A DNA stretch of 64,000 bases from a virus: the IMG/VR virus record IMGVR_UViG_3300045996_003734, positions 45,167 through 109,166 of that record, one strand, 5' to 3'. Positions 6,154 to 64,000 of this stretch are shown one piece after another (position 1 is the first letter of the stretch; every line of letters starts with the position of its first letter). The position numbers and the translations under genes were made by a program. The notes beneath the pieces were generated by a model. It made no database searches. It worked only from the letters and a program-made list of their open reading frames with translations, and was not told the DNA's origin.

Positions 6154-6627
6154 TCAGTAGCCCCCCGGTCGGGGCCGCCTCGCGTTCGGGGCGAACATGA
6201 ACTGCGGGCAGTCCGCGCTCGCGATGCGGCCGCGCACGTTCGGGTTGCGCCCCGCTTTCGCTTCGCCAACCGAGCGGAGCTGCCCTTGCACGATGAGCTC
6301 GAGCATCTTCAGCGCGTCGGTGCGGTGCGACGCGTACGGGGCGCCCTGCCCGCACCACTGCGGCTTGCCCTGCATGCCCTCGTACATGGCGATCGCGCAG
6401 AGCTGGCTCTTGACCGCGTCGTCCTCGGCGACGAGCGCTTCTCGCTGCTCGCGCGCCGGCCAAGCCTTCATGAGCACCGCCTCGCCCAGGCGCGTGGCCA
6501 CGACGCAGGCGACTGCAAGCCGAGGTCCCGGCTCGAGTCGCCCAGCGTCTGAGAACACCTGCGCAACGAATTGCGGCGGGTAGCGCTCCTCCAGGTCGAG
6601 CTGCGTAATGAGCGCCGGTGCGGGCAC
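6154..6627 (-). CDS. Head-tail adaptor (Mu gp36/DUF1320-like)
   Basis: DLEERY start, LCAIAMY and ALKMLELIVQGQ motifs; position after the capsid genes. Confidence 0.75.
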   Translation of the reverse strand: MPAPALITQLDLEERYPPQFVAQVFSDAGRLEPGPRLAVACVVATRLGEAVLMKAWPAREQREALVAEDDAVKSQLCAIAMYEGMQGKPQWCGQGAPYASHRTDALKMLELIVQGQLRSVGEAKAGRNPNVRGRIASADCPQFMFAPNARRPRPGGY

Positions 6628-8436: not shown

Positions 8437-8823
8437 TCACGGCGCGATGAAGCGGCCCTTCCAGAGCTCGAGCTCGAAGAGCCCGTCAGCGCCGGCACAC
8501 GCCGACATGGCGCGACCCCAGATCGCACTCGCCGTGACAGCGGTAGCGAAGCGACCGTCGGTCCCGCATTGAACGAGTGCGTGGAGCGCGATAGCGGCCG
8601 AGCCTTTGGCCGTGACCTTGCCCTCGGTTTGCATCGAGCGGGTGCCGTTTTGCGGCAGGTCTTCGGTCGTCACGCCGCCAGGCAAGCTGGTGACCGCGGT
8701 GGGCAGGATGACTTCGTCCTGACCAACGCCGGGGATGACGCCAAGGCCCTTGCCGATGGCTGCGTTTACGTTCTTGGCCGTTCGGAAGTACGAGGGGCTG
8801 GTGATTTCTCTCGGAGTCGGCAT
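8437..8823 (-). CDS. Capsid decoration/cement protein (DUF2190-like)
   Basis: 128 aa Gly/Ala/Thr-rich ORF between protease and MCP. Confidence 0.6.
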   Translation of the reverse strand: MPTPREITSPSYFRTAKNVNAAIGKGLGVIPGVGQDEVILPTAVTSLPGGVTTEDLPQNGTRSMQTEGKVTAKGSAAIALHALVQCGTDGRFATAVTASAIWGRAMSACAGADGLFELELWKGRFIAP

Positions 8824-8881
8824 GGCTTTCCTCGGGTCGCTGTCAGTTCAAAATGGGAAGCGGTGGGTGTGGGCGCGGCGC

Positions 8882-10510
8882 TCAGAGCGCCAGCTGGCCC
8901 GTGCGGATGAAGCCGCTCGCGGCGCGGACCTGCGTCTGCAGCGGCAGGTCCTTGAAGCCGGGCGTCTTGTCCTTGTGAAACGCCGCGCACTTCTCGATTT
9001 CGTTGCGACCGGGGTAGGCCGCGAACAGCTGAACGTGCGCAGGCGGCGCGCCCGGGGCCCCGACGGCAGGAGCCGACGCCGGCGCGGGAGCGGCGGGCAC
9101 CACGACGCCGTTGAGCAGCTGGACGCCGTTCTGTCCGGCGACGAGGCTCTGCGAGAGCAGCGCCTTCGCTGCGTCGGGCCTCGGCAGGGGGTACTGCGCG
9201 TAGAACGCCGCGAGCTTGGTCTCCCGCTCCTTGGGGTCGTCCACGTTGCAGGCGAGTCGCGAGGTGAGGAGCAGCGGCTTGAACTTCGCCGCGGTGTCGC
9301 CGCTCAGGCCCATCGATGCGGCGATCTGCTCGACCTCCACCTCGGCCTCTTTCTTGTCCGCCGCGCCCAAGCGGTCGCGAGCGGCAGTCAAGCCGGCTAG
9401 GTACTCGTCGGCCTTCTTGGCCTTCTCGATGGTCTTGGCCGCGTCGCCGAGCAGCGCGGTCATGTCGTCAGACTCGAAGAGCCCGAGCAGCTGATCGAGC
9501 GTGTCGCCCTTGACCTTGGCCTTCTCGGCGGCAGCGAGCAGCACCGGCTCGGAGTCGCGGCAGTTGAACAGGTCGGCAAGCTTGCCGAGCAGGGCGGTCG
9601 CGAGAGCGGGAGCAGGGGCAGCGGGTGCGGTCATGGTGTTGTCCTCGGGGGCCGTTGGCGGCGAAGTGCTCGGGTCTGCAACGCCCATGACGAGCTGACC
9701 CGCCGTCGTGAGAATTTCGTCCGAGCTCGCGAGCACGCGCAGACCGAGCAGGCGGCGCACCGAGTCCACGAGGTAGCCAAAGCCATCGGGGAACGCGGCC
9801 GACGTCATGCCGTTCGCGACCGCGTTGCGCAGCGTCTCGATCTCTACGGCGACCTCCGCCGCGGCGGCGTCTCCCGGCAAGCCGAGCAGATCGCGCAGGC
9901 CCACGAGCGCCTCCTCAGCGCTGTCGGCCTTGCCGTAAACGCTCACGCTGGCGGCGATCGGCGCCATGCCCTTGATGAAAGGGTGATTGGTGAAGGCGAT
10001 GCTGGTGAGCAGCGCGCCGATCGGCTTGCCCGTTGCCGCGTCCTTCGCGCTCGGCCACACGGCTACGCTGGTCGACAGGTAGCCGCCCGCGCGAATCTGC
10101 TCTCGCGCCTGGTCGCTGAGCAGCGTGAGCGCCCACAGCTCGGCGCCGTTCTCGCCCTCGCGCAGCTGCAGCTCCGTCGCCCACGCCGGAGCCGGAGCGC
10201 CCGTGGAAGGCAGCGTACCCTCGGTCGGCGCCATCTCGCTCGCGTGTTCGTAGTCGTACGGCACAACGCGCTGCGTGCCGACGCCGTCGGGCCCCGGGCT
10301 GTACCAGGGGTTCGCGTGGAAGTTCGCGATGATTTGTTCGAACGACTTCCGCGTGAATTCGACGACGCGGCCGCTCGGGTGGCCCTCCCACTTGCCCTCG
10401 CGGGCGACCTGGATCCAGACGGCGCCGTCGTTCGCGACCTGCTCCGCGCTGAGCTTTACGGGTACGCCGAAGGCGCGGAGATGGAGCTTGGTGTCATTCT
10501 TGCGAGCCAC
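8882..10510 (-). CDS. Mu-like prohead protease/scaffold (gpI-like)
   Basis: WIQVAREG, DYEH, APAWA, GGYLSTS, FTNHPFIKGM motifs; helical scaffold-like C-terminus. Confidence 0.88.
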   Translation of the reverse strand: MARKNDTKLHLRAFGVPVKLSAEQVANDGAVWIQVAREGKWEGHPSGRVVEFTRKSFEQIIANFHANPWYSPGPDGVGTQRVVPYDYEHASEMAPTEGTLPSTGAPAPAWATELQLREGENGAELWALTLLSDQAREQIRAGGYLSTSVAVWPSAKDAATGKPIGALLTSIAFTNHPFIKGMAPIAASVSVYGKADSAEEALVGLRDLLGLPGDAAAAEVAVEIETLRNAVANGMTSAAFPDGFGYLVDSVRRLLGLRVLASSDEILTTAGQLVMGVADPSTSPPTAPEDNTMTAPAAPAPALATALLGKLADLFNCRDSEPVLLAAAEKAKVKGDTLDQLLGLFESDDMTALLGDAAKTIEKAKKADEYLAGLTAARDRLGAADKKEAEVEVEQIAASMGLSGDTAAKFKPLLLTSRLACNVDDPKERETKLAAFYAQYPLPRPDAAKALLSQSLVAGQNGVQLLNGVVVPAAPAPASAPAVGAPGAPPAHVQLFAAYPGRNEIEKCAAFHKDKTPGFKDLPLQTQVRAASGFIRTGQLAL

Positions 10511-10545
10511 GCGGGCAGCTTGGCCCGCACGTGGTCGCCCTGACC

Positions 10546-10860
10546 CTAGCCGCCGACGAGCTCGTCGGGCTGCCCCGCGCGGCGCCGCACGAGCTTGCCG
10601 TCCACGATGGTGACGACCTCGTCGCGGTCTTCACGCGTCAGCGCGTCGTCCACCGCGGCGTCGTTCTCCTTGCCGGCCTTCGTGCGGATGAGCTCGTTCG
10701 CGCGAGCCATCACCTCGGTGGGCTTGGCGACCAGGCGGAAGAACAGGCGCACGCCGTCGGGCGTGAGGCCTCCGGTGCGCTGGTACTCGGCGAGCTGCCG
10801 CGCAGCGGCCTCCACGTCATCGCGTGGAGGCGCGCCCTTCGGGAGCAGCGGGGCCGTCAT
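10546..10860 (-). CDS. Small protein coupled to the MuF fusion; candidate immunity protein/inhibitor
   Basis: ATGA overlap with the MuF stop; function inferred from position. Confidence 0.55.
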   Translation of the reverse strand: MTAPLLPKGAPPRDDVEAAARQLAEYQRTGGLTPDGVRLFFRLVAKPTEVMARANELIRTKAGKENDAAVDDALTREDRDEVVTIVDGKLVRRRAGQPDELVGG

Positions 10861-13616: not shown

Positions 13617-15217
13617 CGCCCGCCGATGGTCGTGAGCAGCTTCAGCACGTGCGCGGCGCGAACGAGCTGCAGGGGGTCCCGGTCGGTGAACGTGTCTTGG
13701 TCAGGCAGGCCTTGGCCGTCATCGCCAAGGGGCGACGCGCCGCCGGCCCCGCTCTGCTGTCCGAATCCACCACCACCGCCGCCGCCGCCGGGCGACCCGA
13801 AGCCGCCCGCGGGCTGCGGCGCCTGCTGCACCACCAGGTCCTCGGGTTGCGGCTCGGCAAAGCCCACGCGCTCGTACACCTCCGAACGCTTGAGCGGGAT
13901 GCCCAGGCCGAACACCTTCGCGGTGCGCTCGATCTCCTGCCCACGCGTCGGCGTCACTTCGTACTTGAGCTCGATGCGGGGCGCGTGATCGAGCGCCTCC
14001 GCGCCGAAGTTCAGGACGATGATGTCCGCGCCGAGCTGCTCGGTGAGCAGGTCGGAGATGTCCCAGCCGTCCGCCGCGTACACGCTAGACTGCTCGTCCT
14101 GCCCGACCTCGTCGCCGGCGGAGCCGAGCGCGCCCGGCTTAGCGTCGTTCGTGCGCGTGGTCCCGGAGACCAGCTTGCTGATCTCGTCGTTGCATTCCGC
14201 CGCGACTTCCTTGTGGATGGTGCCGGAGTTGTGGTCGGGAGTCTCGAGCTGCAGCTTGACGCCGGGCGGCATCACGCCGGTGGCGTTCGCTCCGAGCGCG
14301 TCGGCGGAGATGGCCGCCTCGTCCAGCGTCTCCTGCTGGATCTGACCGTCCTCAGCCCAGACGATGCGCCAAGGCTTGCCGAACACCTCCAGCAGAATCA
14401 GGCGTTCTCGCCACGAGAAGCGCTTGAAGAAGCTGAAGTACATGCCGCGCGGACCGAAGCCCTCGCGCTCTGGGTAGTCGTTGAACTGCTGCGGCGTGAA
14501 GCTGATGAACTTGAACGGGATCTGCCGCAGCTCGAGCCCGCGCCGCTCGAAGGCGCCACCGGCGAAGCTGTCGTCACGCACGCGCAGCTCGCGCTCGGGG
14601 CCGAAGCTCAGCCGCCGCGGATGAATCCAGTTCAGGCTGTCGATGCGCCACTTGACCGTGCTGCCGGCGGGGTTCTCGCGCCAGACCTTCTCGAGCGCGG
14701 CGCGCCCGTGGCACTGCGCCCAGTTGAGCCTGCGCACCTGCTGGCGCCAATTTGGGATCCAGGCGAGCTGCTGGCGGACGACGTCGGCGTAGAGCTTGGC
14801 CTTGCTTGGGTCGATGCCGTCGCCGGAGGCCGCGATCACGTTGGGCTTGATGCTGGCGAGGGCTCGCACCCGCTTGCCCACCGCCGACGTGAAGTGCGGG
14901 TCGATGGCCAGCGTCTCGTACTGGAGGTCGGTGAGGTCCCGCATGTAACCGAGCTCCGCCGAGCGGACGGCTTGCTCGATGAACTCGGGGGTGAGGGAGC
15001 GGCCGTAGTACCGGCGGTTTTGCTCGGTGAGGGGGAGCTCCCCGCCGAACATCGATTCCTGCAGGTTTTGCCGGGCGACGAACTGATTGCCCGCAGCGTC
15101 GAAGCGGAGGCGGATGCCCTGGCGGGCAGCGCGCTCGATGGCGGCGATGCGCTGGCGTTCCTCGAGCGGGGCTCGCTGGAGGATACCCTGCCGGGTGTGC
15201 AACGGCGCCAGCTTCAC
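13613..15217 (-). CDS. Portal protein (Mu gp29/DUF935-like)
   Basis: DPHF...KR, EVFGKPW, EISKLV.G.T.T motifs; GTG at 15217 with GGAGG RBS. Confidence 0.88.
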   Translation of the reverse strand: MKLAPLHTRQGILQRAPLEERQRIAAIERAARQGIRLRFDAAGNQFVARQNLQESMFGGELPLTEQNRRYYGRSLTPEFIEQAVRSAELGYMRDLTDLQYETLAIDPHFTSAVGKRVRALASIKPNVIAASGDGIDPSKAKLYADVVRQQLAWIPNWRQQVRRLNWAQCHGRAALEKVWRENPAGSTVKWRIDSLNWIHPRRLSFGPERELRVRDDSFAGGAFERRGLELRQIPFKFISFTPQQFNDYPEREGFGPRGMYFSFFKRFSWRERLILLEVFGKPWRIVWAEDGQIQQETLDEAAISADALGANATGVMPPGVKLQLETPDHNSGTIHKEVAAECNDEISKLVSGTTRTNDAKPGALGSAGDEVGQDEQSSVYAADGWDISDLLTEQLGADIIVLNFGAEALDHAPRIELKYEVTPTRGQEIERTAKVFGLGIPLKRSEVYERVGFAEPQPEDLVVQQAPQPAGGFGSPGGGGGGGGFGQQSGAGGASPLGDDGQGLPDQDTFTDRDPLQLVRAAHVLKLLTTIGGR

Positions 15218-20276: not shown

Positions 20277-20323
20277 CAGCCCCCGCTTGACGCCGTGACA
20301 GAGGGGCCCTCTGCTGGGCGGTT

Positions 20324-20740
20324 ATGATCCGAGCGATTTGTACAATCTTGGTACTTCTTACAGTCGCCTGCAGCTCTGACGACGACGCGCAAGCGTGCGC
20401 CCTCGAGCATCGGGACGGCACGTACCTGCTTAAGATGACCGAGCGCTCTGGAAACTGCGGCGCCGTCCCCGACTCGGTCACCCGCCAGAATCCCACGCTC
20501 AACTCGATCGGTAACGGTTGCGCCCTCGATGCCGACGACGACCTGAGCGCCGACAAATGTTCTCTCTCTCGTTCGGCCACTTGCCCCACCGAGGACGGCG
20601 GCACAATTAGCTTGGTGGGGGTCGTCAAGGAGCAGGATGGCGGAGCGAAGCTTACCGGTCTGCTCACCGTGACCTTGCGCGATGACGCCGGCAGCACGCT
20701 CTGCATGGGCACCTACGACGCCACGTACACGCGGCAGTAG
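20324..20740 (+). CDS. Cys-containing lipoprotein (moron)
   Basis: Signal peptide with lipobox LTVAC; opposite strand to its neighbours. Confidence 0.75.
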   Translation: MIRAICTILVLLTVACSSDDDAQACALEHRDGTYLLKMTERSGNCGAVPDSVTRQNPTLNSIGNGCALDADDDLSADKCSLSRSATCPTEDGGTISLVGVVKEQDGGAKLTGLLTVTLRDDAGSTLCMGTYDATYTRQ

Positions 20741-20787: not shown

Positions 20788-21081
20788 TCAACCGACGCTC
20801 CGTCTCCGGTAGTCGTTCTGGGGCTTGCAGAGGTGAAACAGCGTGCAGTGTGGGCATTTGTAGGGCGTGACCTTGTTCCGGCCCTGGCCGCGCATGACGC
20901 GGGCGGCGTGCTTCGCGTTGGCCCGGGTCGAGTACGTGCGCTTGTCGGTGCAGGCGCGGGCCTCGAAGCTGGAGACGCCGCGGGCTTGCATGTCGAGCCG
21001 GCGTTGAGCCGCGCGCGCCGTGGGGAGCTGAGCCACTAGCGGGTACCCGCTAGTGGCGGTTCGAAGCCGCATGCGGGGCAA
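20788..21081 (-). CDS. Small zinc-finger phage protein (start uncertain)
   Basis: C..K..Y.....A...A ... PYKCPHC..FHL motif. Confidence 0.6.
   Translation of the reverse strand: MPRMRLRTATSGYPLVAQLPTARAAQRRLDMQARGVSSFEARACTDKRTYSTRANAKHAARVMRGQGRNKVTPYKCPHCTLFHLCKPQNDYRRRSVG
21032..21057. repeat. Perfect 26-bp palindrome GCCACTAGCGGGTACCCGCTAGTGGC
   Basis: Self reverse-complementary with no spacer. Confidence 0.9.
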
Positions 21082-21308
21082 CGGGGGTTGCCCTTGAAGT
21101 CGTGGCTTCGTGTGCCGTCAGCGCAGCGTGGCCACACTCCGAACGCCAGGTAGCGGTCCCTGTCGGCGAATCGCCTCAGGAGCCCCTGCATGAGCAACCC
21201 GCGAAGCGAGCCCGGCTCCGACATGGCGAACCGCGGCGGCACCTGAACAACCGGCGAGAGAAAGATGGCGCGCGCTTTCTGCCGGAAGCGGCGCAGCTTG
21301 GAGCCCAT
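21036..21308 (-). CDS. Hypothetical protein with C-terminal Cys/His finger
   Basis: C..G...H......CPAC; coupled to the upstream gene. Confidence 0.5.
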   Translation of the reverse strand: MGSKLRRFRQKARAIFLSPVVQVPPRFAMSEPGSLRGLLMQGLLRRFADRDRYLAFGVWPRCADGTRSHDFKGNPRCPACGFEPPLAGTR

Positions 21309-22111
21309 CAGGCCGTCGCCCCCAGCTCCAGTTGCTTCTCGTCAGCCCGTAGCGCGCGCGCCTCGATGATTTCGCCGGTGTCGAGCCGGGTGACCTCGAC
21401 CACCCCGAGCTTGTAGTTGGTCTTCTGCTCACACTCGACGGCGCGCTCTTCGATGGCTTGGCCGGAGGCGACCACCAGCCGGATGAACTCCTTTTGGCAT
21501 TCCGCGATTTGCGCGCGCTTTTCGCGCATCAGGTTCTTGAGCTCCGTCTCGAGCCGCTCGCGCTCGAGCAGCTTGCCGGCGGCGGCTTGCGCGGCCTTGT
21601 GGGACTGCTCGGGCGTGAGGGCGCAGGGCAGCGTGCGTTCGATTCGGATCTTCTTGATGGCTTGCTTGGTCACGGCGTCGCTCCTCGCCCAGCAAAGGGC
21701 CTCGTAGGTCAGCAGCCCGGCGTCCTCAGCAGCCGCCAGGGTTTGAATGGTGAAGTTGCGGCTCCAGCCGAGGCGCTTCGAGGCGATGGCCAAGAGCTCG
21801 TCGGGGGAGCTGCACTCGATGACGGCGGCGAGCTGCGAGGCGCGGGGGGCCCAGCAGGGGTCCGCGCAGGCCTCCCTGCCCTTCGTCGGTGCCCGAGGCT
21901 CGGTCGTGAAGTCCTCGTCCGGAGCGTGGTGCCGGAGCCAGTGCAGCGTCGACCGCAGGTCGTCCTCGGTGGCTTCCGGGAACTGGCGGCGTAGCGAGCC
22001 GAACAGGTAGGCCTGGCTCTTCTTGCGCTTCGCCACCTCGCGGATGGTCCCGCCGATGTTTCGAGCCGCCTTGGTGCAGACGTCGAGCGCGAAGTCGCGG
22101 AGAGCCCTCAG
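21308..22111 (-). CDS. Hypothetical phage protein (coiled coil plus VEC...RLDTGE motif); start uncertain
   Basis: 3' part of ORF 21308-22432; the 5' part overlaps a better ORF. Confidence 0.55.
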   Translation of the reverse strand: MRALRDFALDVCTKAARNIGGTIREVAKRKKSQAYLFGSLRRQFPEATEDDLRSTLHWLRHHAPDEDFTTEPRAPTKGREACADPCWAPRASQLAAVIECSSPDELLAIASKRLGWSRNFTIQTLAAAEDAGLLTYEALCWARSDAVTKQAIKKIRIERTLPCALTPEQSHKAAQAAAGKLLERERLETELKNLMREKRAQIAECQKEFIRLVVASGQAIEERAVECEQKTNYKLGVVEVTRLDTGEIIEARALRADEKQLELGATA

Positions 22112-22425
22112 CGGAGCCTCCGCAGGGCGGTCCGGAGTGAGCTGAGGTTGAAGTCGGAGCGCCCCCCGTTCGAGCCGTCCAGGATGTCGAGGGCGAGCTG
22201 CTGAGCCTCCGGGCCATGCTTCCCGTCCAGCGCCGCGTCGGCGAGGTCGAGCAGCTCCTGTCGCTCCTTGCGGAGCTTCTCCCGCTCGACGAGCTCTTGC
22301 TCGCGCTGGATGGCGGCTTGGCGCTCCGGGCTCAGCGTGGCACCCATCGCGCGCTCGACGTGGGCAAGCGCTTCGGCGTCGTAGCCGGCGCGCTTCATTG
22401 CTTCCGCGTTTCGATTCAGGTTCAA
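22108..22425 (-). CDS. Hypothetical protein downstream of the initiator
   Basis: 4-nt overlap with the initiator stop; helical. Confidence 0.55.
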   Translation of the reverse strand: MNLNRNAEAMKRAGYDAEALAHVERAMGATLSPERQAAIQREQELVEREKLRKERQELLDLADAALDGKHGPEAQQLALDILDGSNGGRSDFNLSSLRTALRRLR

Positions 22426-23552
22426 GATTCACCTACAGCGGCTAGGGTTGGCAGGACGGCACCGAGCAGCGCGGGGCCGCTCTTGGGGCCGCCCGAACGG
22501 TTGGGGTCGGGCTTCAGGCCGCTCTTGGCGCGGGCAATGCGCTCGAGCTGGTGCGGGGAAAGTTGGGTCTCGCGGGCGCCGGCCTGCTCGCGCCGAATGA
22601 CCTCCACGGACAGCGCGCCCAGGCTCCGAGGCTTGCCTCCGTCCGCGCGCCACCACGGCGACTTGGTCACCCCGCGCACGGCGGTCAGCAGCTCGTCGGG
22701 CTCGAAGCCGGCCGCGAGCAGCGCCACGACGGCTCGCACCCCGGAGTCCTTGGCGTACGGCAGCAAGCGCGCCGAGCCGCGCATCCCGTTCGCTTCGTGC
22801 ACGGCCTGCGCAACCGCTTGGACCTCCGGCCAGGTCTCCGGCGTGAGCCACTCGGCCATATGCCGGTTCCGTTCGGTGTACGCGGCTCGAGCGGCGATCG
22901 GCATGCGCATCGCCTCGGCCGGGTTTCGCGGCGTCTCGCCGACGAATGGCTGATCGGCAACCTCGACCGGTGCCGCCGGCGGTGGTGCTTCTTCGCGCGG
23001 TCGCGCGATCTCCGGCACGGCTGGCTTTGTACGGCTAGGCACAGCTGAGCTGGAGTGACCAACCGTGACCGGCTGTGACCGGTCGTGACGTTCGGTCACG
23101 GGCAGTGACTCGGCGTCACGAATCGTGACGGGTTGTGACGAGGTCTCCAGGACCGTGGCCACGACGGCCACCAGCTCGGCCGGCACGCCGGGCATCTCGG
23201 CCGCGCGGAGGGCTGCAGCGCGACGAGCGCGACTCTCGCGCTGGCGCTGCGCGTCGCTCTGCTTCGCCTCCTGCGCCCGAATGAAGTTCGGGACGAAGAG
23301 GACGCCGTCCGTCACCGCGACCACCTTGCGCTCGAGCAGCTTCGCCATGCCCGTGCGCGCGTGCTCGAGCGGGAGGTCGGCGAGAGCGGCTAACGCCTCG
23401 GCCGGCTCGAGGCCTTCGAGGTCCAGGACGCCGGCGCGGTCGACCTCCAAAAGCAGGGCGTGGAGGCACATGCGGCCGTCCCAGCCGAGCAGCTTCGTGG
23501 TGACGGTCTTGCGCGTGTAGACGCGAACGTAGCGTTCGTCTTCGAAGTTCAA
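22422..23552 (-). CDS. Putative replication initiator (lambda O/DnaD-like layout)
   Basis: N-terminal wHTH-like domain, AQRQRESRARR helix, low-complexity linker containing iterons; TTG start at 23552. Confidence 0.7.
   Translation of the reverse strand: MNFEDERYVRVYTRKTVTTKLLGWDGRMCLHALLLEVDRAGVLDLEGLEPAEALAALADLPLEHARTGMAKLLERKVVAVTDGVLFVPNFIRAQEAKQSDAQRQRESRARRAAALRAAEMPGVPAELVAVVATVLETSSQPVTIRDAESLPVTERHDRSQPVTVGHSSSAVPSRTKPAVPEIARPREEAPPPAAPVEVADQPFVGETPRNPAEAMRMPIAARAAYTERNRHMAEWLTPETWPEVQAVAQAVHEANGMRGSARLLPYAKDSGVRAVVALLAAGFEPDELLTAVRGVTKSPWWRADGGKPRSLGALSVEVIRREQAGARETQLSPHQLERIARAKSGLKPDPNRSGGPKSGPALLGAVLPTLAAVGES
23055..23139. repeat. Iteron array: nine GTSAC motifs at exact 10-bp period; probable replication origin
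   Basis: GTGAC/GTCAC at 23055, 65, 75, 85, 95, 23105, 15, 25, 35 inside the initiator gene. Confidence 0.8.
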
Positions 23553-23902
23553 ACCCAGGACTCCACGGCCGCGAAGGCCTCGACGACGTTGCGAACCACG
23601 GCGTAACGAACCCCGAGCCGCTCTGCCTTGGCCTGCCAAAGCTTCTGGCTAGGGAGCTGCCTGCCCTCTGCCGTCTTCACCTCGAGGCCGCCGAGGCGGC
23701 CGCCGGGGAGCACCAGGAGGATGTCCGGCGTGCCGGCAGGCGCCCCCTTGATCACGCGTCGCCGCGTGCGCACGGTGGCGCTGATGACCTGCGTCCCGCT
23801 GTTCGCCCGCCACGCCCAGATGCCTCGGAGGGCGAGCGCGCGGATGATGGCGGTGACGCGCGGGGACTCCTTGCCCCGTGCCCGGCGCCGATGCCTAAGC
23901 AC
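23549..23902 (-). CDS. VRR-NUC (PD-D/ExK) nuclease
   Basis: GTPDIL...LEVK...GRQ.PSQ..W motif. Confidence 0.85.
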   Translation of the reverse strand: MLRHRRRARGKESPRVTAIIRALALRGIWAWRANSGTQVISATVRTRRRVIKGAPAGTPDILLVLPGGRLGGLEVKTAEGRQLPSQKLWQAKAERLGVRYAVVRNVVEAFAAVESWV

Positions 23903-24419
23903 TGGTCACCTGCCGTCGGGCCGTCTTGGCCTGGTAGGTCGGGCGGCTCTCGAGCGCGGCGTGCAGGACCTCGCAGCTCTCGGCGCGCTTGTAGATGGTC
24001 AGGATGCTGATCTGCAGGGCGCGCGCGGCTCCCGTGATCGTCCCCTCAGCCAAGACGGCCGCGGCCATCTCCTCGCTGGTGATTCCCCGCGCCTTGTACT
24101 GGTACGTGGGCTTGTCGCACTCCGGGCAGGCGGCGACCGAGCGGAGGAAACCGTGTTCGCAGCGGGGCGTCAGGTAGAAGCGCTCCCGACCCACGAGTCG
24201 CCCCGACCGGTGCGACGGCTTCGACCGGTCGCGGTAGAAGTCCGACACGGACGTCTTGCACTCGATCAACGTGGACGTGCCGCGCGCCGTCCAGCCAAGC
24301 GCGTCCGGTGAGAGATTGGCGCAGAACGCCGAGCACTCGGTGACGACCACGACGCTCTTGCGAGTGTGAGTGAGCCAGCGAGCGGCGCGCTGGACGAGCT
24401 CAGCGTGCGTCTCAGCCAT
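23895..24419 (-). CDS. PD-(D/E)xK nuclease-like (MmcB-like) protein with C-terminal HTH
   Basis: PDALGW...IECKTSVSDF..D; ITGAARALQISILTIYKR. Confidence 0.6.
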   Translation of the reverse strand: MAETHAELVQRAARWLTHTRKSVVVVTECSAFCANLSPDALGWTARGTSTLIECKTSVSDFYRDRSKPSHRSGRLVGRERFYLTPRCEHGFLRSVAACPECDKPTYQYKARGITSEEMAAAVLAEGTITGAARALQISILTIYKRAESCEVLHAALESRPTYQAKTARRQVTSA

Positions 24420-24598
24420 GGGTCACCTGCTTGCGCGGACGACCCACGGGGCGCCCGGTGGGGACGTACGCTTGGCGCCTGAGGTCCCGCTCGCGCCGCT
24501 CCGTCTCCCGACCGACGAGGGTAACGCTGCCTAGCGGCTGCGTCGGCGCGGCCGGGCCGGTGCCGAGGCAGTCCAGGCAGTCGCAGCAGAGAGGGTGC

Positions 24599-24787
24599 TC
24601 AGCCACGGCCGGCCTCCTGCGCTTCCGCCCGCGCCTGCGCGGCCTTGCCCTTGGCGTACCGCTCCGCCTGGCACCCTTCGCACAGGCCGAGCAAGGCGTG
24701 GACGCCGTCGACCAGGTCCGTGCACTTCTTCGAGCAGCGCTCGCAGAGGTAGGTGACGGTGGGGCTCCGCTTACCGGCCACGGCCAC
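24599..24787 (-). CDS. Small Cys-rich protein
   Basis: Two CxxC pairs; coupled within the operon. Confidence 0.45.
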   Translation of the reverse strand: MAVAGKRSPTVTYLCERCSKKCTDLVDGVHALLGLCEGCQAERYAKGKAAQARAEAQEAGRG

Positions 24788-25067
24788 CTCCGCTCGCGTG
24801 CGCGCGCCCGTGCTTCAACCCCTGTTCGTAGGCGAGCAGCTGCCCGGCCTCCGGCTCCCAACCGCAGGCGGTGCAGCGGTAGCGGTGGGACTGCTCGCCC
24901 GTCGGGACGAGTTCGTGCAGCAGGCACGCCTGGGTCCTGGCGTGCTGGGCCTTGATGGCCTCGAAGCGAGCCCTGGCCTCGTCGCGGGACATGCCCGTCA
25001 GCGCACCGACAATCGCCGCGCCGTCGTACGTGCCGTCTGGGTTTTGGAACCGGCGCGGGTCAGCCAC
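24771..25067 (-). CDS. Small Zn-ribbon protein
   Basis: C..H ... YRCTACG. Confidence 0.55.
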   Translation of the reverse strand: MADPRRFQNPDGTYDGAAIVGALTGMSRDEARARFEAIKAQHARTQACLLHELVPTGEQSHRYRCTACGWEPEAGQLLAYEQGLKHGRAHASGGGRGR

Positions 25068-25281
25068 GGCCGCCCTCCCGCTCCAAGGCCTCGGCCACGT
25101 CCGCCATGGCCGCCAGGCGCTCGGCCCAGACGCGAGCGTTCGCCGGCGACAGGTCGAGCCCGGCGCCGTTGCTGAACTCGAGGATCACCTTGCCCGGCTC
25201 CGCCGACAGGTGGGCTGGCATTACGGACGGCCGAGCGGCCGCGCCTTGCCGATGGGCGGCCAGCTGAATGACCTTACCCAT
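25060..25281 (-). CDS. Small hypothetical protein
   Basis: Overlaps the int stop; MGKVIQL start. Confidence 0.55.
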   Translation of the reverse strand: MGKVIQLAAHRQGAAARPSVMPAHLSAEPGKVILEFSNGAGLDLSPANARVWAERLAAMADVAEALEREGGRG

Positions 25282-26815
25282 GGCGACGGGCCTCCTCCGC
25301 GATCTCCGCGACCGCCCCGTCCACGTCTCCGGCCAGGACCTTCTCGAGTGCGCGCGCTACCGCGAGGCCGGGCCGAAGTGGTAGGCTCGGGTCAACATCG
25401 GCCAACCGCTCCAGGCGGTGGACCCGGAGCAGGTTGTCGCGACGAGCCCCAAAAGGATCGTCTAACGAATCGTCTAGACCGCCCGCCGAGGCGACCGAGG
25501 GCCGACTCTCGCCCTCCGAATCAGCGCCAGAAACGGCATTTGGGGACCCTGCGCCGCCGGCGGGAGAATTCGAATCCCTCCCTCTCCGCAGCAGTTCCTC
25601 CGGTGAAACCGCAGATTCACCGGAGGCGTTAGACGATTCATAGACGAATCGCTGCAGGCTCTCCGGCAGAGGCGCGAACGGATCGCCGATGCTGGCGCCC
25701 AGCGCCTGGTGTCCGCGGCGGATGTAGATCTGCGTGGTCTTGAAGTCGGAGTGCCCAGCTCGCTCGCGAATCATGTTGTCCGTGTCTCCCCGCATGGCCA
25801 TGTAGGTGATGCCCGTTGCTCGCAGGTCGTGGAAGCGCAGCGCGCGCACACCCTTGCGGTTCTTCTTGTGGAGCGCCGGCCGGTCCACGCCGGCCGTAAG
25901 TAGGTCCTCACGGAGCACGTCGTACGGTCGCTCGACGATCTCGAACACCGACTCTCGACTGCGCCGCCGGTACATGGCCTCGAGCATGGGCCTTAGGAGC
26001 GGCTCGATGCTGAAGTGACGGGAGCGGCCTGTCTTCGTGTACTCGTGAAAGACTTGGGCCTTCGAGTCGAAGGACCGGTTCACGCGGACCATGCCGTGCG
26101 CTACGTCCACCCCGAGGCGCCAGAGCAGCGCGAGCACCTCACCCGGCCGGCAGCAGCAGTAGACGGCCACGGCGTAGAGGGCGCGCCGCTCTCGCGGCAC
26201 CTCCGGGCACGCTAGCAGCTTCTGGAGCTCGACCGGGAAGAGCCACTGCAGCTCCACCTCGCCCGGCGGGTCCGGCGGCACTACGCCCTCGGCAGGGTTT
26301 CGGGACAGCAGACGGAGCTCGCGCTTCTTGGAGTGCGCCAGGTCGCGGAACATCTTGGAGGCCACGGCCCAGCAGTTCTGGGCGGTCTTGGCGCTGAACG
26401 TGACCTCGCCGTCCTGGGCCTTCTCGTCCAACCACTGCACGAGGTCCCGGAGGTCGTCCGTCGTCACCTCGTCCACGTGCTTCTTGCCGATGATGGGGCT
26501 GATGTGGAGCCGGTACCGGTAGAGGTCCGAGCGCAGGGACTTCTTGCTCGAGCGCGACGGGATCCAGAGACGCTCGAAGTATTCGTCGCACGTCGGGCGC
26601 GTGCTGATAGGCGTCTTATCCTGCGGGGGCGACCAGACCTTGCCCTTAGCCGCCAGGCTCAGCTTGCGGGCAACCTCGCGCGCGTCGTCGTCCGACAACG
26701 CCGGATCGATCGGGATGTACGGCCGGACCGTCTTCCCCTCCGCGTTCTTGGCTGTGATGCGCGCGTACAGCGTGGTCGCGTTGACGCGCCAGATTGTGCC
26801 CTTGGTCTTGGTCAT
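25274..26815 (-). CDS. int: Tyrosine integrase with attP inside its 3' coding region
   Basis: Catalytic R (CRPGE), K (TKTG), HDLR, GH, Y (TQIY, ~aa 364); ~150-aa extension beyond the catalytic Tyr. Confidence 0.95.
   Translation of the reverse strand: MTKTKGTIWRVNATTLYARITAKNAEGKTVRPYIPIDPALSDDDAREVARKLSLAAKGKVWSPPQDKTPISTRPTCDEYFERLWIPSRSSKKSLRSDLYRYRLHISPIIGKKHVDEVTTDDLRDLVQWLDEKAQDGEVTFSAKTAQNCWAVASKMFRDLAHSKKRELRLLSRNPAEGVVPPDPPGEVELQWLFPVELQKLLACPEVPRERRALYAVAVYCCCRPGEVLALLWRLGVDVAHGMVRVNRSFDSKAQVFHEYTKTGRSRHFSIEPLLRPMLEAMYRRRSRESVFEIVERPYDVLREDLLTAGVDRPALHKKNRKGVRALRFHDLRATGITYMAMRGDTDNMIRERAGHSDFKTTQIYIRRGHQALGASIGDPFAPLPESLQRFVYESSNASGESAVSPEELLRRGRDSNSPAGGAGSPNAVSGADSEGESRPSVASAGGLDDSLDDPFGARRDNLLRVHRLERLADVDPSLPLRPGLAVARALEKVLAGDVDGAVAEIAEEARRHG
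25456..25650. promoter_or_regulatory. Integrase arm-type sites flanking the att core (consensus TAGACGAWTC)
   Basis: Minus-strand copies at 25456-25464 and 25467-25476; plus-strand copies at 25630-25639 and 25641-25650; the right pair has an 11-bp period, the left pair 12 bp. Confidence 0.75.
25569..25589 (+). other. attP core, matching a tRNA-Ser 3' end (TTCGAATCCCTCCCTCTCCGC)
   Basis: T-loop plus acceptor 3' strand of bacterial tRNA-Ser; no tRNA 5' half upstream. Confidence 0.82.
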
Positions 26816-27141
26816 CAGACCGCCTCCCGGAAGCCGCGGCGAAGGAGCGCCGCCTCGATGGGGTCGATGGTCGGAGCGGGCGGTGGCGCGGAAGCGGGCG
26901 CGACCCGCAGCACTGGCTCGACGCGAGCCTGCTCGATGTAGCGGTGCATGGCCGCGCGCTCCACGAGCACCCGGCCCGCGCGCTTGAACCCCGGCAGCGT
27001 GCCCTGGCGGACCAGCCGGCAGTGGGTCTGCTTGGGCAGCGGCGACGTGTCCTGGTCGTAGTACCGGGGCCCGTCATTCTGCTCGAGTCGGTCGGCGACC
27101 GCGTCGGCGAGCTGGTGGAGGAGGGCGCGGAGGTCGCTCAC
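26815..27141 (-). CDS. xis: Excisionase-like HTH protein
   Basis: LVRQGTLPGFKRAGRVLVERAAMHRYIE motif; directly upstream of int. Confidence 0.75.
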   Translation of the reverse strand: MSDLRALLHQLADAVADRLEQNDGPRYYDQDTSPLPKQTHCRLVRQGTLPGFKRAGRVLVERAAMHRYIEQARVEPVLRVAPASAPPPAPTIDPIEAALLRRGFREAV

Positions 27142-27357
27142 CCTTCGACCTCCATGTACTCGAACCCGCACCCAAGGCAGGTCACGTCGGTGATGCCGTC
27201 CCTGTAGCAGCGGCTTATCTGCACGTGCTCGCAGGTGACGAACGGGCCGCGCAGCCGGAACGCCTTACGCTTCGGCTTGGCCGCCAGTCCGAGCTGCGCG
27301 TCCAGACGCCGCTCCACCTCGGCGTGGTCGACGTAGTCCAACGGCATCGGTTGCATC
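27138..27357 (-). CDS. Small Zn-ribbon protein (start approximate)
   Basis: C.H ... C..CG; GTGA overlap with xis. Confidence 0.45.
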
Positions 27358-27625
27358 ACGAGGTGCTCTCCTGCTCTGCGCGCTTGAGCCGCTCCTCGGC
27401 CTCGCGCTGGTAGTTGCTCATCGCCTGGTCGAGGTGGATGCGGCCGCTCTTGGTCCAGTAGGCCCAGAGCTCCCGGCACACCGCGACGCGCTGCTCGTCG
27501 GTCAGCATTGCGGGTCCCCCGTTAGGAGCCAGGCGAGCACGCGCTTCGGCAGCTCTACCCGCTCGCGCTTGTTCTCGGGCCCGTCCCCGACGGTGAGCAC
27601 GATCGCTGCGGGCCAGCCCGAGCCG

Positions 27626-27871
27626 TCAGCGCGCCGCACCTCGCGGATGCTTCGGGTCGACGTGTGCCCGAACGGGTTCGCGTCGTCGCAGACCCAGCCG
27701 TCCAGCTCGAACGGCCCGGCGCTCGGAGCGGCAGCCGTTGCAGACACGGGAACGACAGCCGGGGTTGGCGAAGTGGTAGTCCGTGAGCGGCCACCACTCG
27801 TCGCAGCGGTTGCAGCAACGCTCAATGATGCCGTCTTCGGCGGGTCGATCGGGGACGCGCTCCCAGAGCAT
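27626..27871 (-). CDS. Small Cys4 zinc-finger protein
   Basis: RCCNRCDEWWP...F...C.GC; GGAGG RBS. Confidence 0.55.
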   Translation of the reverse strand: MLWERVPDRPAEDGIIERCCNRCDEWWPLTDYHFANPGCRSRVCNGCRSERRAVRAGRLGLRRREPVRAHVDPKHPRGAAR

Positions 27872-27884
27872 GATCGCCTCCGCA

Positions 27885-28604
27885 CTAGGCCGCCCTCCGC
27901 GCCACGCCCTCGGCTGCCCCACCCCGAGCGGCATCGTCCCAAGCCTGAACGCAATGACGCCGGAGGGCGTCAGATTCAGTGCAGGGGCGCAGCGGGGCAG
28001 GCTGCGGCGCGCAGCGGAATGCCACAGCATCGGGCAAAAAAAAGGGCGCCGCGCGGTCGATTCGAACGACCTCATTCCCCGCTTCACCGGCCGGCATGGC
28101 GGGGACCCGGCTCAACAGACCGGTGACCTTCCCACAGGTCGAGCGCGCGTCTTGTGGTGCTAAGTGCGAGGTGGCCAGTTCCAGCAGCCTGGCTTCGGCG
28201 TCTCGCTGAAGGGAACGTCCGTGTTGAAGAACTGTCCCGTCGGGTTCAGGATGCAAAGGCCCACGCTGTCGTTGGGCCCGAAATTCACCTGCGTCACCAC
28301 CGCCGCTCTCGGCGCCGGCAGGTACTCGCCGCCCGGCGTTCCGTAGCTCTGGTAGTGCACGATCCGTCCCACGCTCGGTTTCTGGTCCATTGGTTTCTCC
28401 GTTCAGCTCGAGCACGCACAGCGCCTCGAGAGCAGTCATGCGGGCGCGGCCGAGCTCGAGGTCACGCAGCGTCCGGACGCCGATGCCGAGCTCGTGGGCG
28501 GCGCGCTCCTGCGACCAGCCGCGGGCAACGCGGGCTCGACGGAGGCGACCGGCAGCCGCCCGCCTCGCCCCACCCCGCAGGGTGAACAGCTTTCCCTCAG
28601 ACAT
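27885..28604 (-). CDS. XRE-family HTH protein (domain at ~28390-28604; long overlapping tail doubtful)
   Basis: LRRARVARGWSQERAAHELGIGVRTLRDLELG. Confidence 0.55.
   Translation of the reverse strand: MSEGKLFTLRGGARRAAAGRLRRARVARGWSQERAAHELGIGVRTLRDLELGRARMTALEALCVLELNGETNGPETERGTDRALPELRNAGRRVPAGAESGGGDAGEFRAQRQRGPLHPEPDGTVLQHGRSLQRDAEARLLELATSHLAPQDARSTCGKVTGLLSRVPAMPAGEAGNEVVRIDRAAPFFLPDAVAFRCAPQPAPLRPCTESDALRRHCVQAWDDAARGGAAEGVARRAA
28036..28071 (-). terminator. Possible intrinsic terminator (T8 run after the tRNA-like stems)
   Basis: A8 on the plus strand at 28036-28043, rare in this GC-rich DNA. Confidence 0.45.
28044..28149 (-). tRNA. Atypical tRNA-like RNA (anticodon GTT/Asn) with 35-nt variable arm, imperfect acceptor stem, no CCA
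   Basis: D-arm GACC-tgtgggaa-GGTC; anticodon arm CCGGT-ctgttga-GCCGG; T-arm GGTCG-ttcgaat-CGACC; followed by T8. Confidence 0.65.
28160..28390 (-). CDS. Conserved small phage protein (PSVGRIVHY...W.WP family)
   Basis: Recognisable motif; GGAGA RBS. Confidence 0.75.
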   Translation of the reverse strand: MDQKPSVGRIVHYQSYGTPGGEYLPAPRAAVVTQVNFGPNDSVGLCILNPTGQFFNTDVPFSETPKPGCWNWPPRT

Positions 28605-28914
28605 GGTCACCTTGAAGCAAGCGCTCGCGGACGTGCTCGACCGCTGCCGCGAAGCGCTCGTCCTGGAGCCGAGCCCGAGCGGCGCGCAGCAGGGCGGTAG
28701 CCGCCCCGCCCGTCCGACCGAGGGCCACGGCCACCTCGGCATCGCTCATGACGGTGTGGTCGTGGAGCAGCAGAGCGGCGACGTGGCGAGCGAAGCCGAG
28801 GCTCCGGGCGATGCGAGGGCCGCGGAGGTCGACGACGGCGATCCCGAAGTGCTCAGCAGCCCGCTCGATGATGAGCGGAGCCGGGAGCAGACGGAGGGCT
28901 GGTGCGGCTCCCAT
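28597..28914 (-). CDS. DnaA C-terminal (domain IV)-like HTH protein
   Basis: IIE..AEHFGI...DL.G.R......ARHVA..L...T.MS..E....LGR pattern. Confidence 0.75.
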   Translation of the reverse strand: MGAAPALRLLPAPLIIERAAEHFGIAVVDLRGPRIARSLGFARHVAALLLHDHTVMSDAEVAVALGRTGGAATALLRAARARLQDERFAAAVEHVRERLLQGDHV

Positions 28915-29094
28915 TCAGCCCTCCCCGCGGTTGGAGAAGCCCTTGAAGACGGCCGGCTTCACCTCGACCAGCTCCCGGAGCGGCTGCTCGAGCACGCGAG
29001 CGCCTTGGGCCTTGGCCACCTGGGCCTCACGGGCGAACACCAGCGCGAAGCGGTGCTCTCCGGCTACCTCGGTTTCGGCGAGCCAGGACTGCAT

Positions 29095-29367
29095 TTAGGC
29101 CGCCTCTTTGCGGTCGCAGACCCGGAGGTAGCGGATGAACTCCCGCCGCAAGCGCCCGCTCCGGAGGACGGCTCGGAGGTTCAGCGGGGCGGTGCCGGCC
29201 ACCCAGGCCTGCATCGTTCGGAGGCTGACGCGGCACCAGCGCGCGGCATCGGACTGCGACGCGCCCGCCTTGGCGATGGCGTAGCGCAGCGCATGCGCAG
29301 AATGCTGCGTAACCTGTTGCTCCGACCAGGTTACCCCGATGTGCGGGATGACCGTACGCTTGGCCAT
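29095..29367 (-). CDS. HTH regulator (cII-position)
   Basis: SQSDAARWCRVSLRTMQAWVAG; follows the cro-like gene. Confidence 0.65.
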   Translation of the reverse strand: MAKRTVIPHIGVTWSEQQVTQHSAHALRYAIAKAGASQSDAARWCRVSLRTMQAWVAGTAPLNLRAVLRSGRLRREFIRYLRVCDRKEAA

Positions 29368-29368
29368 G

Positions 29369-29608
29369 TTAGGCAGCCCCCTTGTCCGGCTCCCGCTCGG
29401 AAGCAGCCGGCTCACTCCACCACGCCGGATCGATTGGAACCTCCGGATCGTCCTTCAGCTTTTGACTGTTCTCGGTCGTCGGCGCCGTGCCGCCGCGCGC
29501 GAGCCTCGACAGTCTCGGTTGAGAGATACCAGTGCGGCTCGCGAGCCGTTTCTGGACCCCTCGGGTTTGGAAGGCTTTTGCCAACGTTTGAGAGGCCCGC
29601 GAATGCAT
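29369..29608 (-). CDS. Cro-like repressor
   Basis: QKRLASRTGISQPRLSRLARG HTH; divergent from cI-like gene. Confidence 0.7.
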   Translation of the reverse strand: MHSRASQTLAKAFQTRGVQKRLASRTGISQPRLSRLARGGTAPTTENSQKLKDDPEVPIDPAWWSEPAASEREPDKGAA

Positions 29609-29646
29609 CAGCGTCGCAAGTATGCACTCGCGGATATATCCGTCAA
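29594..29646. promoter_or_regulatory. Operator pair and leftward promoter (TTGACG-16-CATACT)
   Basis: ATGCATTCGCGGGCC (-, 29594-29608) and ATGCACTCGCGGATA (+, 29622-29636). Confidence 0.6.
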
Positions 29647-30320
29647 CGCAAAAACGGACTACTTGCGTGGAGGCCCCGGAATTTGGAGCATTCGGCGTGC
29701 CCGCTCACCCAGGCCCGTTGAAGGCCAAGCCACCGAAGACACGACCCGCGGGGTGGACCGATGGTCAGTGGCAGTTTCCCAAGCGTCTCGAGGCGCTTGG
29801 CGTCGAGTGTGGCTGGGACCCGGCGGAGGTGCAGCGAATCGCCCAGGTCTCGCAGGCCACCGTCTCGCGTTGGCTGGCATACAAGTCGAAGCAGCCAGAT
29901 CCGCTTGCGGTGAAGCGATTGGAGATAGCTGCAAAACGGCCGCCAGGCTGGCTCTTGCGCGAGCCCGACGAGGGAACAACAGCTGCAGCGTCGGGCGTTT
30001 CCACGCAACTCGCGCTGCGGCTTGTCCGAGCAGGCCTGAGCAACGACTTGCTAACTCTCTCGGATGAGGAGCTAGGGGCAGTGGAACGGTTTCGACCTGA
30101 GTTGAGAAAGGCGATCTTGGGGATCGTCCACGTGTACGACGTGCCGCTTGAGCGCGCCGCCGCTTTGGCGGACATCGCCGTGGGCGCTGAGCCATCGATG
30201 GTGGGGCATCCGTCGGGAGACGCGCCTTTCTGGTTTGAGCGAATGGCTAGACGGGTGCCGCCGAGAAAGGAAAGCGGCAGCTTTCCGTCGTCGGGCTCGA
30301 TAAAAATTCCGAAGCGATAA
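29622..30320 (+). CDS. CI-like HTH immunity repressor (true start may be downstream)
   Basis: VQRIAQVSQATVSRWL HTH; flanked by operator repeats; no S24 peptidase domain recognised. Confidence 0.7.
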   Translation: MHSRIYPSTQKRTTCVEAPEFGAFGVPAHPGPLKAKPPKTRPAGWTDGQWQFPKRLEALGVECGWDPAEVQRIAQVSQATVSRWLAYKSKQPDPLAVKRLEIAAKRPPGWLLREPDEGTTAAASGVSTQLALRLVRAGLSNDLLTLSDEELGAVERFRPELRKAILGIVHVYDVPLERAAALADIAVGAEPSMVGHPSGDAPFWFERMARRVPPRKESGSFPSSGSIKIPKR

Positions 30321-30370: not shown

Positions 30371-30405
30371 ATGCGCTTGCGCATTCATCCGCGAACGCAT
30401 ATATC
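30371..30405. promoter_or_regulatory. Second operator pair over a rightward promoter (TTGCGC-17-TATATC)
   Basis: ATGCGCTTGCGCATT (+, 30371-30385) and ATGCGTTCGCGGATG (-, 30386-30400). Confidence 0.6.
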
Positions 30406-30705: not shown

Positions 30706-30724
30706 GCTCTCCGGCCTTCGAGGC

Positions 30725-30793
30725 CTCGAGTGGGTGTCGCTCCGGGGAGTCAACCCTCCCCCCGACCTGACCTCGGAGCGACACCCACTCGAG
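30725..30793. repeat. Perfect 20-bp inverted repeat with C-rich loop
   Basis: CTCGAGTGGGTGTCGCTCCG at 30725-30744 and its reverse complement at 30774-30793. Confidence 0.9.
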
Positions 30794-31056
30794 TCCGCGC
30801 AAGCGACTCGACCAACCAGGAGCTGCAATCCCGTGACCATCAACCTGCACAACTGCCGAATCCTCCTCGCGCTCACGCCCGAGCAGTTCGAGAGGCTCAT
30901 CGAGGCCACTCGTGACGGCGCCGCCATCGTAACCACGGCGGAGCCCGTACCGCCGAACGACCCGCCGTCGAGCACCTTCCCCGCTGCTCCGGCCGCAACC
31001 GCCGAGAGCTCGGAGCCCGCCCTCCGCAACGTCGTCCCCCTCCGTCGGGTGGCAGC

Positions 31057-63781: not shown

Positions 63782-64000
63782 CGGCGTCCTTCGTCAGCTC
63801 AGCCAACGCCTTCCGCCAATCGGGGTCGGCGTTGTCGCCGCGGATGATGGCTGCCAGCTCGGCGAGCTTCAGTGTTCCGGCGTCGAGGTCTCGGCAGATT
63901 GCAACCAGGACGGCGCCGTCGGTGAGCGCAAAGCTTCCCGCGCCATACGTATGATGCAGCTGGGCTGCTCGTGCCCAACGATACCGAGTAAAGGGAGGAT
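62280..64000. repeat. Diverged direct repeat, copy B (matches 1-1718)
   Basis: See copy A; one in-frame 3-nt indel near 63785. Confidence 0.95.
63774..64000 (-). CDS. 3' end of tail chaperone G (stop at 63869) / GT (stop at 63774), copy B; slippery site at 63989-63995
   Basis: Homologous to 1495-1718. Confidence 0.8.
   Translation of the reverse strand, partial: PPFTRYRWARAAQLHHTYGAGSFALTDGAVLVAICRDLDAGTLKLAELAAIIRGDNADPDWRKALAELTKDADV

Follow-up and report, generated by a model that had tools for sequence, protein, structure and literature searches.

Phage Mx8 integrates at tRNA-Asp sites; its IntX protein is less active, tandem lysogens are known, and Mx8 lysogens as well as int/uoi constructs exist in Myxococcus xanthus. 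In Tn916, the transfer genes are transcribed across the joined ends only after circularisation. Lambda int/sib retroregulation is a case in which integration alters the cis linkage to int, and a split-operon model was reportedly proposed by Bertani for int of phage P2. Published work places the Mx8 attachment site within int, with integration making a new 3′ end (PMC6070905), describes a helper-embedded phage-inducible chromosomal island that postpones a late gene to the time after excision (PMC10111431), and describes promoter switching in ICEKp1 (PMC13023037). Here, we analysed the final 64 kb of the 109,166-bp IMG/VR virus record IMGVR_UViG_3300045996_003734 (64,000 nt, hereafter the window, in whose coordinates positions are given) with a focus on its early region at 20788–29646. 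The window is best explained as part of a temperate ~62-kb myovirus of Polyangiales (Myxococcota) with a Mu-like head, and its phage attachment site (attP) lies inside the integrase gene int, within a chain of genes leading from a cro-like gene to a candidate replication initiator.

Self-comparison of the record revealed 1.75 head-to-tail units with a period of ~62.15 kb; the window matches itself between 1–1718 and 62280–64000. The units belong to two phage genomes, the window phage and a sister phage termed copy 1, which share just 72–93% identity, and host DNA was absent.

The early gene chain and its internal attachment site

Real reading frames were told apart from shadow open reading frames (ORFs) by codon-position GC (GC3), which was used because the GC content is high, followed by start-codon mapping, in which we chose the start closest to the upstream stop. 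From cro to the initiator, 17 successive minus-strand genes were found, whose junctions vary between a gap of 1 nt and an overlap of 11 nt. Four further minus-strand ORFs beyond the initiator reach 20788, and the array is closed by a plus-strand gene at 20324–20740 that is conserved in both phage copies. The features of the region are as follows.

29619–29646, minus strand: P_cro, candidate early leftward promoter, TTGACG-16-CATACT (sigma-70-like motif scan)
29598–29608 (plus) and 29622–29632 (minus): operator-like inverted half-sites CGCGARTGCAT bracketing the -10 hexamer
29369–29608, minus strand: cro-like helix-turn-helix (HTH) gene, first of the chain (Pfam HTH_3, E = 1.2e-6, 28.8 bits, cut-off 23)
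27138–29367, minus strand: seven small early genes (Pfam; start and overlap mapping)
29095–29367, minus strand: HTH_23-like gene, weak (Pfam)
28597–28914, minus strand: DnaA_C-like HTH gene (Pfam, E = 2.3e-7)
27885–28604, minus strand: HTH_3 gene (Pfam, E = 8e-7)
26815–27141, minus strand: putative excisionase gene xis (HTH_17, E = 1.5e-4, 22.4 bits, under the cut-off of 27)
25274–26815, minus strand: int, tyrosine integrase of 513 aa (PF00589, E = 1.9e-11; phrog_1, E = 9e-37)
23895–25281, minus strand: five small ORFs after int (73 aa, 98 aa and Zn-ribbon-like, 60, 64 and 174 aa)
23549–23902, minus strand: VRR-NUC nuclease gene (Pfam VRR_NUC, E = 8.4e-5, 23.0 bits, cut-off 23.8; PHROG endonuclease, 9e-13)
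22422–23552, minus strand: candidate replication initiator or replisome organiser, 376 aa (family matches of homologues)
23055–23139, no strand assigned: origin-like iteron array inside the initiator gene, nine GTSAC pentamers exactly 10 nt apart
20788–22425, minus strand: last four ORFs of the chain, with no family match except phrog_15216 (unknown function) for 20788–21081

The stop codon of xis overlaps the ATG of int by 1 nt. The xis product is 52% identical to that of the gene upstream of int in an integrated relative from Polyangiaceae (locus L002), and its counterpart in copy 1 matches HTH_17 with E = 8e-17. Each of the five ORFs after int overlaps its neighbours by 8–11 nt, and these ORFs gave only PHROG matches of unknown function.

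The catalytic domain of the integrase (Int) spans residues 192–366 (PF00589), and the R, H, R and Y positions were invariant in a 29-sequence family alignment. The frame then runs on for 147 codons, through attP, which was delimited by a tRNA match and arm repeats.

25455–25650, no strand assigned: attP
25569–25589, sense on the plus strand and antisense to int: attP core of 21 nt, TTCGAATCCCTCCCTCTCCGC, corresponding to the 3′ end of tRNA-Ser(GCT)
25628–25650: P arm, two sites
25455–25479: P′ arm, two inverted sites
25597–25626: 11-bp hairpin between the P arm and the core

The core thus lies in the 3′ tail of the int ORF. It was identical at 21 of 21 nt to the 3′ end of tRNA-Ser(GCT) genes or fragments in two Polyangiales genomes; the same 21-mer terminates the tRNA-Ser(GCT) genes of a Polyangiales metagenome-assembled genome (MAG; loci L009 and L010) and marks several tRNA fragments beside integrated elements in two MAGs. 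An orientation of the tRNA-like fragment sense to int was rejected, as ARAGORN placed it antisense in L009 and L010. The sequence ATCGTCTA occurs in the 64 kb as three exact copies and one copy with one mismatch, all at 25457–25476 and 25630–25648, giving two inverted sites of this type on each side of the core, inside int, that are putative Int arm sites. Nucleotide homology to L002 (xis and int, 71% identity) ends at 25620, ~30 nt before the core. Because the chain is co-oriented and gap-free and contains attP, integration must cut it; integration at the core very probably splits the P_cro side from the initiator side.

P_cro was the sole sigma-70-like match in 19.5–31.5 kb (1 found versus 0.4 expected), and its exact pattern occurs once in the 64 kb versus 0.02 expected. 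The cro ATG lies 11 nt past the -10 hexamer, and the promoter forms an island of conservation between the window phage and the diverged copy 1. The half-site CGCGARTGCAT has exactly two exact matches in the window, both at P_cro. Two further regulatory features lie to its right.

29622–30320, plus strand: cI-like repressor candidate, divergent from cro, start codon uncertain (weak HTH_3, E = 0.006; PHROG transcriptional repressor, E = 6.6e-4)
30377–30405, plus strand: P_R, second promoter-like element, TTGCGC-17-TATATC (found by eye, not called by the scan)

P_R carries an operator copy with one mismatch at 30390–30400, precedes a plus-strand gene at 30412, is conserved in copy 1 and faces rightward genes including those for SbcCD-like, MazG, HNH and 608-aa ParB-like proteins. 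Directly after the first rightward gene, a 34-nt inverted repeat at 30714–30804 (85% complementary) could serve as a terminator or attenuator. When the minus strand was scanned with relaxed settings, only a weak site at 27241–27214 was added (2 matches versus 1.4 expected), and no sigma-70-like match appeared at 25568–20788. This stretch of the minus strand also gave no sigma-54-like match, and none of the 40-nt windows from attP to the start of the initiator gene has a GC content below 50%. No operator copies were found in the window other than those at P_cro and P_R. In the integrated map, the initiator is downstream of neither of these promoters, and there are no other operator carriers.

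The first-pass annotation had described a co-oriented, mostly overlap-coupled chain with cro, HTH genes, xis, int and the initiator, which frame and start mapping confirmed; it had spoken of nucleases in the plural, of which one, the VRR-NUC gene, was recognised and no others were. Its statement that no intergenic gap for a promoter is visible between int and the initiator agrees with our mapping, where the largest gap was 1 nt. The early promoter that it placed near ~29640 was located at 29646–29619, and attP, which it set between this promoter and the initiator/origin with neither coordinates nor a position inside int, now has a defined core. The motif, operator and GC scans between attP and the initiator were likewise negative for the promoter types that they cover.

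The initiator protein itself gave no direct Pfam or PHROG match. In an alignment of the initiator with 33 homologues, in which each of the 34 sequences was scanned singly, phrog_16167 and phrog_1408, both annotated as replication initiation protein, were matched by 8 and 7 sequences, respectively. DnaD-like loader and O-like initiator families were matched by three sequences each, Pfam DnaT by five and Phg_2220_C by two, and the neighbours of the protein in a language-model atlas (Atlas) bear Phage_rep_org_N. Its AlphaFold2 model (predicted local distance difference test score, 74.4) has an N-terminal winged helix; comparison of this model with known structures returned generic winged-helix regulators only, with E = 0.2 or worse, and a profile search of solved structures gave a single match with E = 0.81. 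A profile search of 301 Polyangiales-order genomes yielded 0 matches and also missed a known relative in genome G001, so that it is uninformative. The GTSAC array, which a second, separate analysis also picked up, reaches a density of 9 per 100 nt versus a background of 0.25, the next-densest 100-nt window containing 3. Since the homologues match initiator families and the array lies inside the gene, labelling 22422–23552 as initiator/origin is reasonable. Lambda O-type initiators also carry the origin within their own gene.

The sister phage and integrated relatives

The gene order in copy 1 is cro-like and HTH genes, a DnaA_C-like gene, xis, int, small ORFs, VRR-NUC and a large ORF, and this chain is gap-free too. 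Its integrase of 463 aa has no nucleotide relatedness to the window int, and in the tail of its gene lies a fragment, antisense to int, that agrees with tRNA-Asn(GTT) in 21 of 22 nt. The xis-int-attP cassette together with two small ORFs (window 24763–27164; contig 8577–10723, L011) is swapped between the phages: it has no nucleotide homology between the copies, the flanks are 80–93% identical, and the targets are tRNA-Ser(GCT) in the window phage and tRNA-Asn(GTT) in copy 1. Likewise, because 22102–23548 has no nucleotide homology between the copies and the GTSAC array is absent from copy 1, the replication specificity module is swapped as well. In one soil DNA run, the contig depth was 2–3 across int-xis (25340–27040) compared with 10–20 in most flanking bins; the lower depth over int-xis suggests that a different integration cassette is present in most strains of that sample. 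The single DNA run with the region consisted of contigs of related strains and contained no usable attP junctions.

The alignment extends to residue 497 or further in 14 of 40 Int homologues and ends at residues 383–412, where the core lies, in 13. Int relatives were encoded at 64 metagenome loci, and the 51 with the catalytic end and at least 200 nt downstream were counted. A complete tRNA or transfer-messenger RNA (tmRNA) gene convergent with int was present in 29 of these 51 loci, 38–138 nt after the position of residue 387, and the targets were Asp (11), Gly (5), tmRNA (4), Glu (3), Val (2), Lys (2), Ser (1) and Pro (1). The int frame enters the convergent gene in 28 of these 29 loci, its tail being 29–73 codons long in most cases versus 126 in the window; 8 of the 22 loci with no tRNA have window-like tails of 109–168 codons. 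All examined loci of the family together target at least eight tRNA species or tmRNA, and a family member (E = 1e-40 or better) was found in 60 of 301 sampled Polyangiales-order genomes. Across the family, Polyangiales elements thus commonly have the attachment site within int, a design that would give two isoforms of Int.

Two junctions in the Polyangiaceae genome G001 show the split state in a relative. At L002, the order is ParB, a sigma70_r4 protein, xis, int, P arm and core, followed by an integrase remnant and the host kdpAB genes. At L013, beyond the end of another element, the core and the P′ arm are followed by an int tail with 60% identity to residues 454–513, then by genes for a sigma70_r4 protein and for an initiator relative (30% identity). 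A single consensus covers the arm repeats of both loci. The G001 relative is an island with a PRTase-CE/ORC-CDC6-like conflict system rather than a full phage.

Two small elements, each lying between a tRNA and a 3′ fragment of that tRNA and measuring 14.9 kb (tRNA-Ala) and 12.4 kb (tRNA-Asp), have nearly all genes co-oriented with int. The 14.9-kb element (L113), which has a related integrase, contains an AT-rich region flanked by inverted CGTCGTCCA repeats at ~14460–14640, just inside attR. Among relatives in the attP form, L025 shows a gap-free layout with int followed by overlapping co-oriented genes including an endonuclease gene, and L061 has int followed by co-oriented, gap-separated genes including one for a DnaC-like loader.

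Further observations were made at the tRNA-Ser(GCT) loci. At L002 (11180–11290), L004 and L013 (10892–10960), the tRNA-Ser core is inverted relative to int (Int 70% identical), and the core–arm spacing in these inverted-core elements, found in two Polyangiales MAGs, is mirrored at 88 + 35 nt versus 38 + 90 nt in the window; the stretch enclosed by the inverted arm repeats seems to have been flipped. The loci in G001 and G002 (L003–L010 and L013) comprise several fragments per genome, in tandem arrays of at least three different elements that include the integrase remnant adjoining kdpAB. The 3′ end of tRNA-Ser(GCT) is an integration hot spot. At L013 12826–15614, a PRTase-CE and ORC-CDC6-like pair (Pfam, E = 8e-41 and 7e-116, respectively) followed by a methylase-like gene and a DEAD/Lhr-type helicase gene is likely a conflict or defence system.

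Transcription of the replication genes in the prophage

In the mechanism that we propose, P_cro, under the control of the repressor, would feed cro, the HTH regulators, xis, int, the five ORFs, VRR-NUC, the initiator and the last four ORFs. Recombination at the core must linearise the genome there. One prophage end then consists of the tRNA, followed by truncated int, xis, the regulators and P_cro, and the other of the int tail, the nuclease, the initiator/origin and the late genes; the integrated int frame would gain a different C-terminus, as in IntP/IntX of Mx8. The distal half would have no promoter of its own and depend on read-through from P_cro, a dependence that we infer because a gap, a sigma-70 or sigma-54 motif, an operator and a GC minimum are all absent from the minus strand between attP and the start of the initiator gene. 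After derepression, expression would be limited to the genes from cro to the truncated int, and P_cro would be rejoined to the initiator by excision or at a tandem-prophage junction. Excision would then precede replication.

The first-pass annotation had proposed that integration moves the replication genes to the opposite end of the prophage and that a tandem junction bypasses the separation. Both points follow from the geometry of attP, by which a tandem junction rejoins the P_cro side and the initiator side, and the split is also seen in integrated relatives; the geometric part of its reading therefore stands, and the same gene order in Mx8 was absent from it.

Its functional part holds that excision gates replication through this split operon, as a safeguard against replication in situ; support for it comes from the negative motif scans, and we judge its chances to be even. 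Several points weigh against it. The AT-rich region of L113 is by eye a promoter candidate for the distal genes of that element, and independent promoters would then occur within the Int family. In Mx8, int is followed by intergenic gaps of 47, 169 and 57 nt, where the window has none, and these could hold promoters. Consensus scans overlook activator-dependent, extracytoplasmic function (ECF)-type or weak intra-coding promoters, and motif scans are weak evidence in Myxococcota. The family assignment of the initiator is transitive because the protein itself matches no family, and its fold matches are generic only. The core of the G001 relative is inverted compared with that of the window. No lysogen of the window phage was found, the contig being entirely phage DNA, and no RNA sequencing runs containing 21000–30000 were listed.

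Some of these points favour a possible, if somewhat doubtful, alternative in which the split is real and regulatorily silent. Unrecognised intra-coding promoters would drive the nuclease and the initiator in the prophage, and the layout would be a by-product of the placement of the int-attP cassette in the early chain together with Int isoform switching. The swappable cassette, with no homology between the copies and flanks that are 80–93% identical, is in line with this, as are the promoter-like AT-rich region inside attR of L113, the gaps after int in Mx8 and the promoter types that the scan leaves uncovered. The interval from attP to the initiator argues otherwise, since a gap of more than 1 nt, an AT-rich stretch, an operator copy and a consensus match are all absent there, and the gap-free layout recurs in copy 1 and L025; L061 is co-oriented with gaps.

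It is improbable that the element never integrates, with int-attP a relic or the contig chimeric. The composition of the record, 1.75 units of two 72–93% identical phages with no host DNA, would fit such a case, and no near-identical prophage was found. However, the int frame is intact, with the catalytic domain and the family-conserved residues present; attP combines a perfect 21-nt tRNA match with four arm sites; and relatives are integrated in many genomes, the family occurring in 60 of 301 Polyangiales-order genomes. More improbable still is that attP has another location and that the tRNA-Ser-like 21-mer matches by chance or as a relic: its position and orientation agree with those in 29 integrated relatives, the homology to L002 breaks ~30 nt before it, at 25620, and the arm repeats occur nowhere else in the window. 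These agreements are set against an overlap of the core with a near-palindrome and its reversal in the relative E1 (G001 and G002).

If, as split-operon gating supposes, the distal genes are promoterless, the arrangement would be a simple topological way to secure excision ahead of replication. In-situ over-replication of the host chromosome would be avoided and, since the operon is whole again at a tandem junction, replication competence would be tied to the number of prophage copies. A tentative extension, which we place a little short of an even chance, is that throughout the family, including Mx8, integration cuts the early operon, the initiator, the origin-bearing gene and the nucleases are transcribed only from the circle or a tandem junction, the Int isoforms switch, and swappable cassettes keep this logic under a change of target, from tRNA-Ser in the window phage to tRNA-Asn in copy 1. 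The gating idea is directly testable in Mx8 and M. xanthus. Apart from this, the early region is well formed and ordinary for a temperate phage.

Source of the DNA and comparison with known systems

The window has a GC content of ~69% and no tRNA genes, and its virion genes include those for a Mu-type portal, Mu F, a Mu-like protease, sheath, baseplate J, tape measure and terminase. The closest cellular relatives of the integrase were in Polyangiales and Polyangiaceae MAGs. Because two phages of 72–93% identity stand head-to-tail with no host DNA, the record has the appearance of an assembly chimera of two strains that occur together, or of a hetero-concatemer. The possibility that the two copies are tandem prophages at one attachment site was rejected, as the integrases and tRNA cores differ and both attP sites are intact. 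Isolated phages gave zero megablast matches to a 10.4-kb region and only three weak tblastn matches to Int, and the viral contigs scanned with Int gave zero matches. The lowest GC content of the region (38% over 40 nt) was found at 20277–20360, between a divergent terminase-side gene and a plus-strand gene of 138 aa, and this is likely a late promoter region. In the tail region, 58257–58553 contains three tandem 99-nt repeats rich in Gly, Pro and Ser, which are 70–75% identical to the reference copy.

Literature searches found no paper testing excision-gated replication genes in a phage, most older journals being outside the coverage. The GenBank record of Mx8 lists imm, p2–p10, uoi, int, p13–p19 and p20 (DnaC-like), on to the terminase, on one strand. 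As in the window, the module thus lies in a long co-oriented chain leading from immunity or early genes through int and replication-type genes to the terminase. Both phages have Myxococcota hosts and tyrosine integrases of ~510–530 aa with a tRNA-derived attP core and arms in the 3′ coding tail, ~100–115 codons ahead of the int stop, and in both an HTH excisionase gene lies directly upstream of int. Inside Mx8 int, at 6453–6468, we found an antisense tRNA-Asp T-arm stretch (15 of 16 nt, E = 0.16), a match that is weak alone. The two Int proteins are distant, with 26% identity over residues 47–302 in pairwise BLASTP (E = 1e-13), and Mx8 was not among the matches when a phage collection was searched by tblastn with the window Int at E = 1e-5. 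The phages also differ in that the window core derives from tRNA-Ser(GCT) instead of tRNA-Asp, and the virion module of the window is that of a Mu-like myovirus, unlike that of Mx8. The replication proteins are unrelated (initiator versus p19, E = 1.3; the ORF two genes downstream versus p20, E = 3.3).

The initiator resembles lambda O-type proteins and replisome organisers in that the iterons lie within the linker of the initiator gene and some of its homologues match PHROG families of replication-initiation, O-like and DnaD-like proteins. It differs from them in that the window protein has no direct family match and the iteron is a 5-mer with 10-nt spacing. The proposed regulation is like that of Tn916 in that the promoter and the target genes flank the attachment site and form one transcription unit only in the excised circle, whereas Tn916 is a conjugative transposon that gates transfer genes and the window belongs to a phage with replication genes at stake. 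In lambda int/sib and P2, the cis linkage to int, and with it expression, also differs between the prophage and the circle, but int itself is affected there and the replication genes here. The layout belongs to the known Mx8 kind, an under-described design of which it is an ordinary though well-supported member, and the regulatory reading resembles the circularisation-dependent transcription of Tn916 and the split-operon idea for P2.

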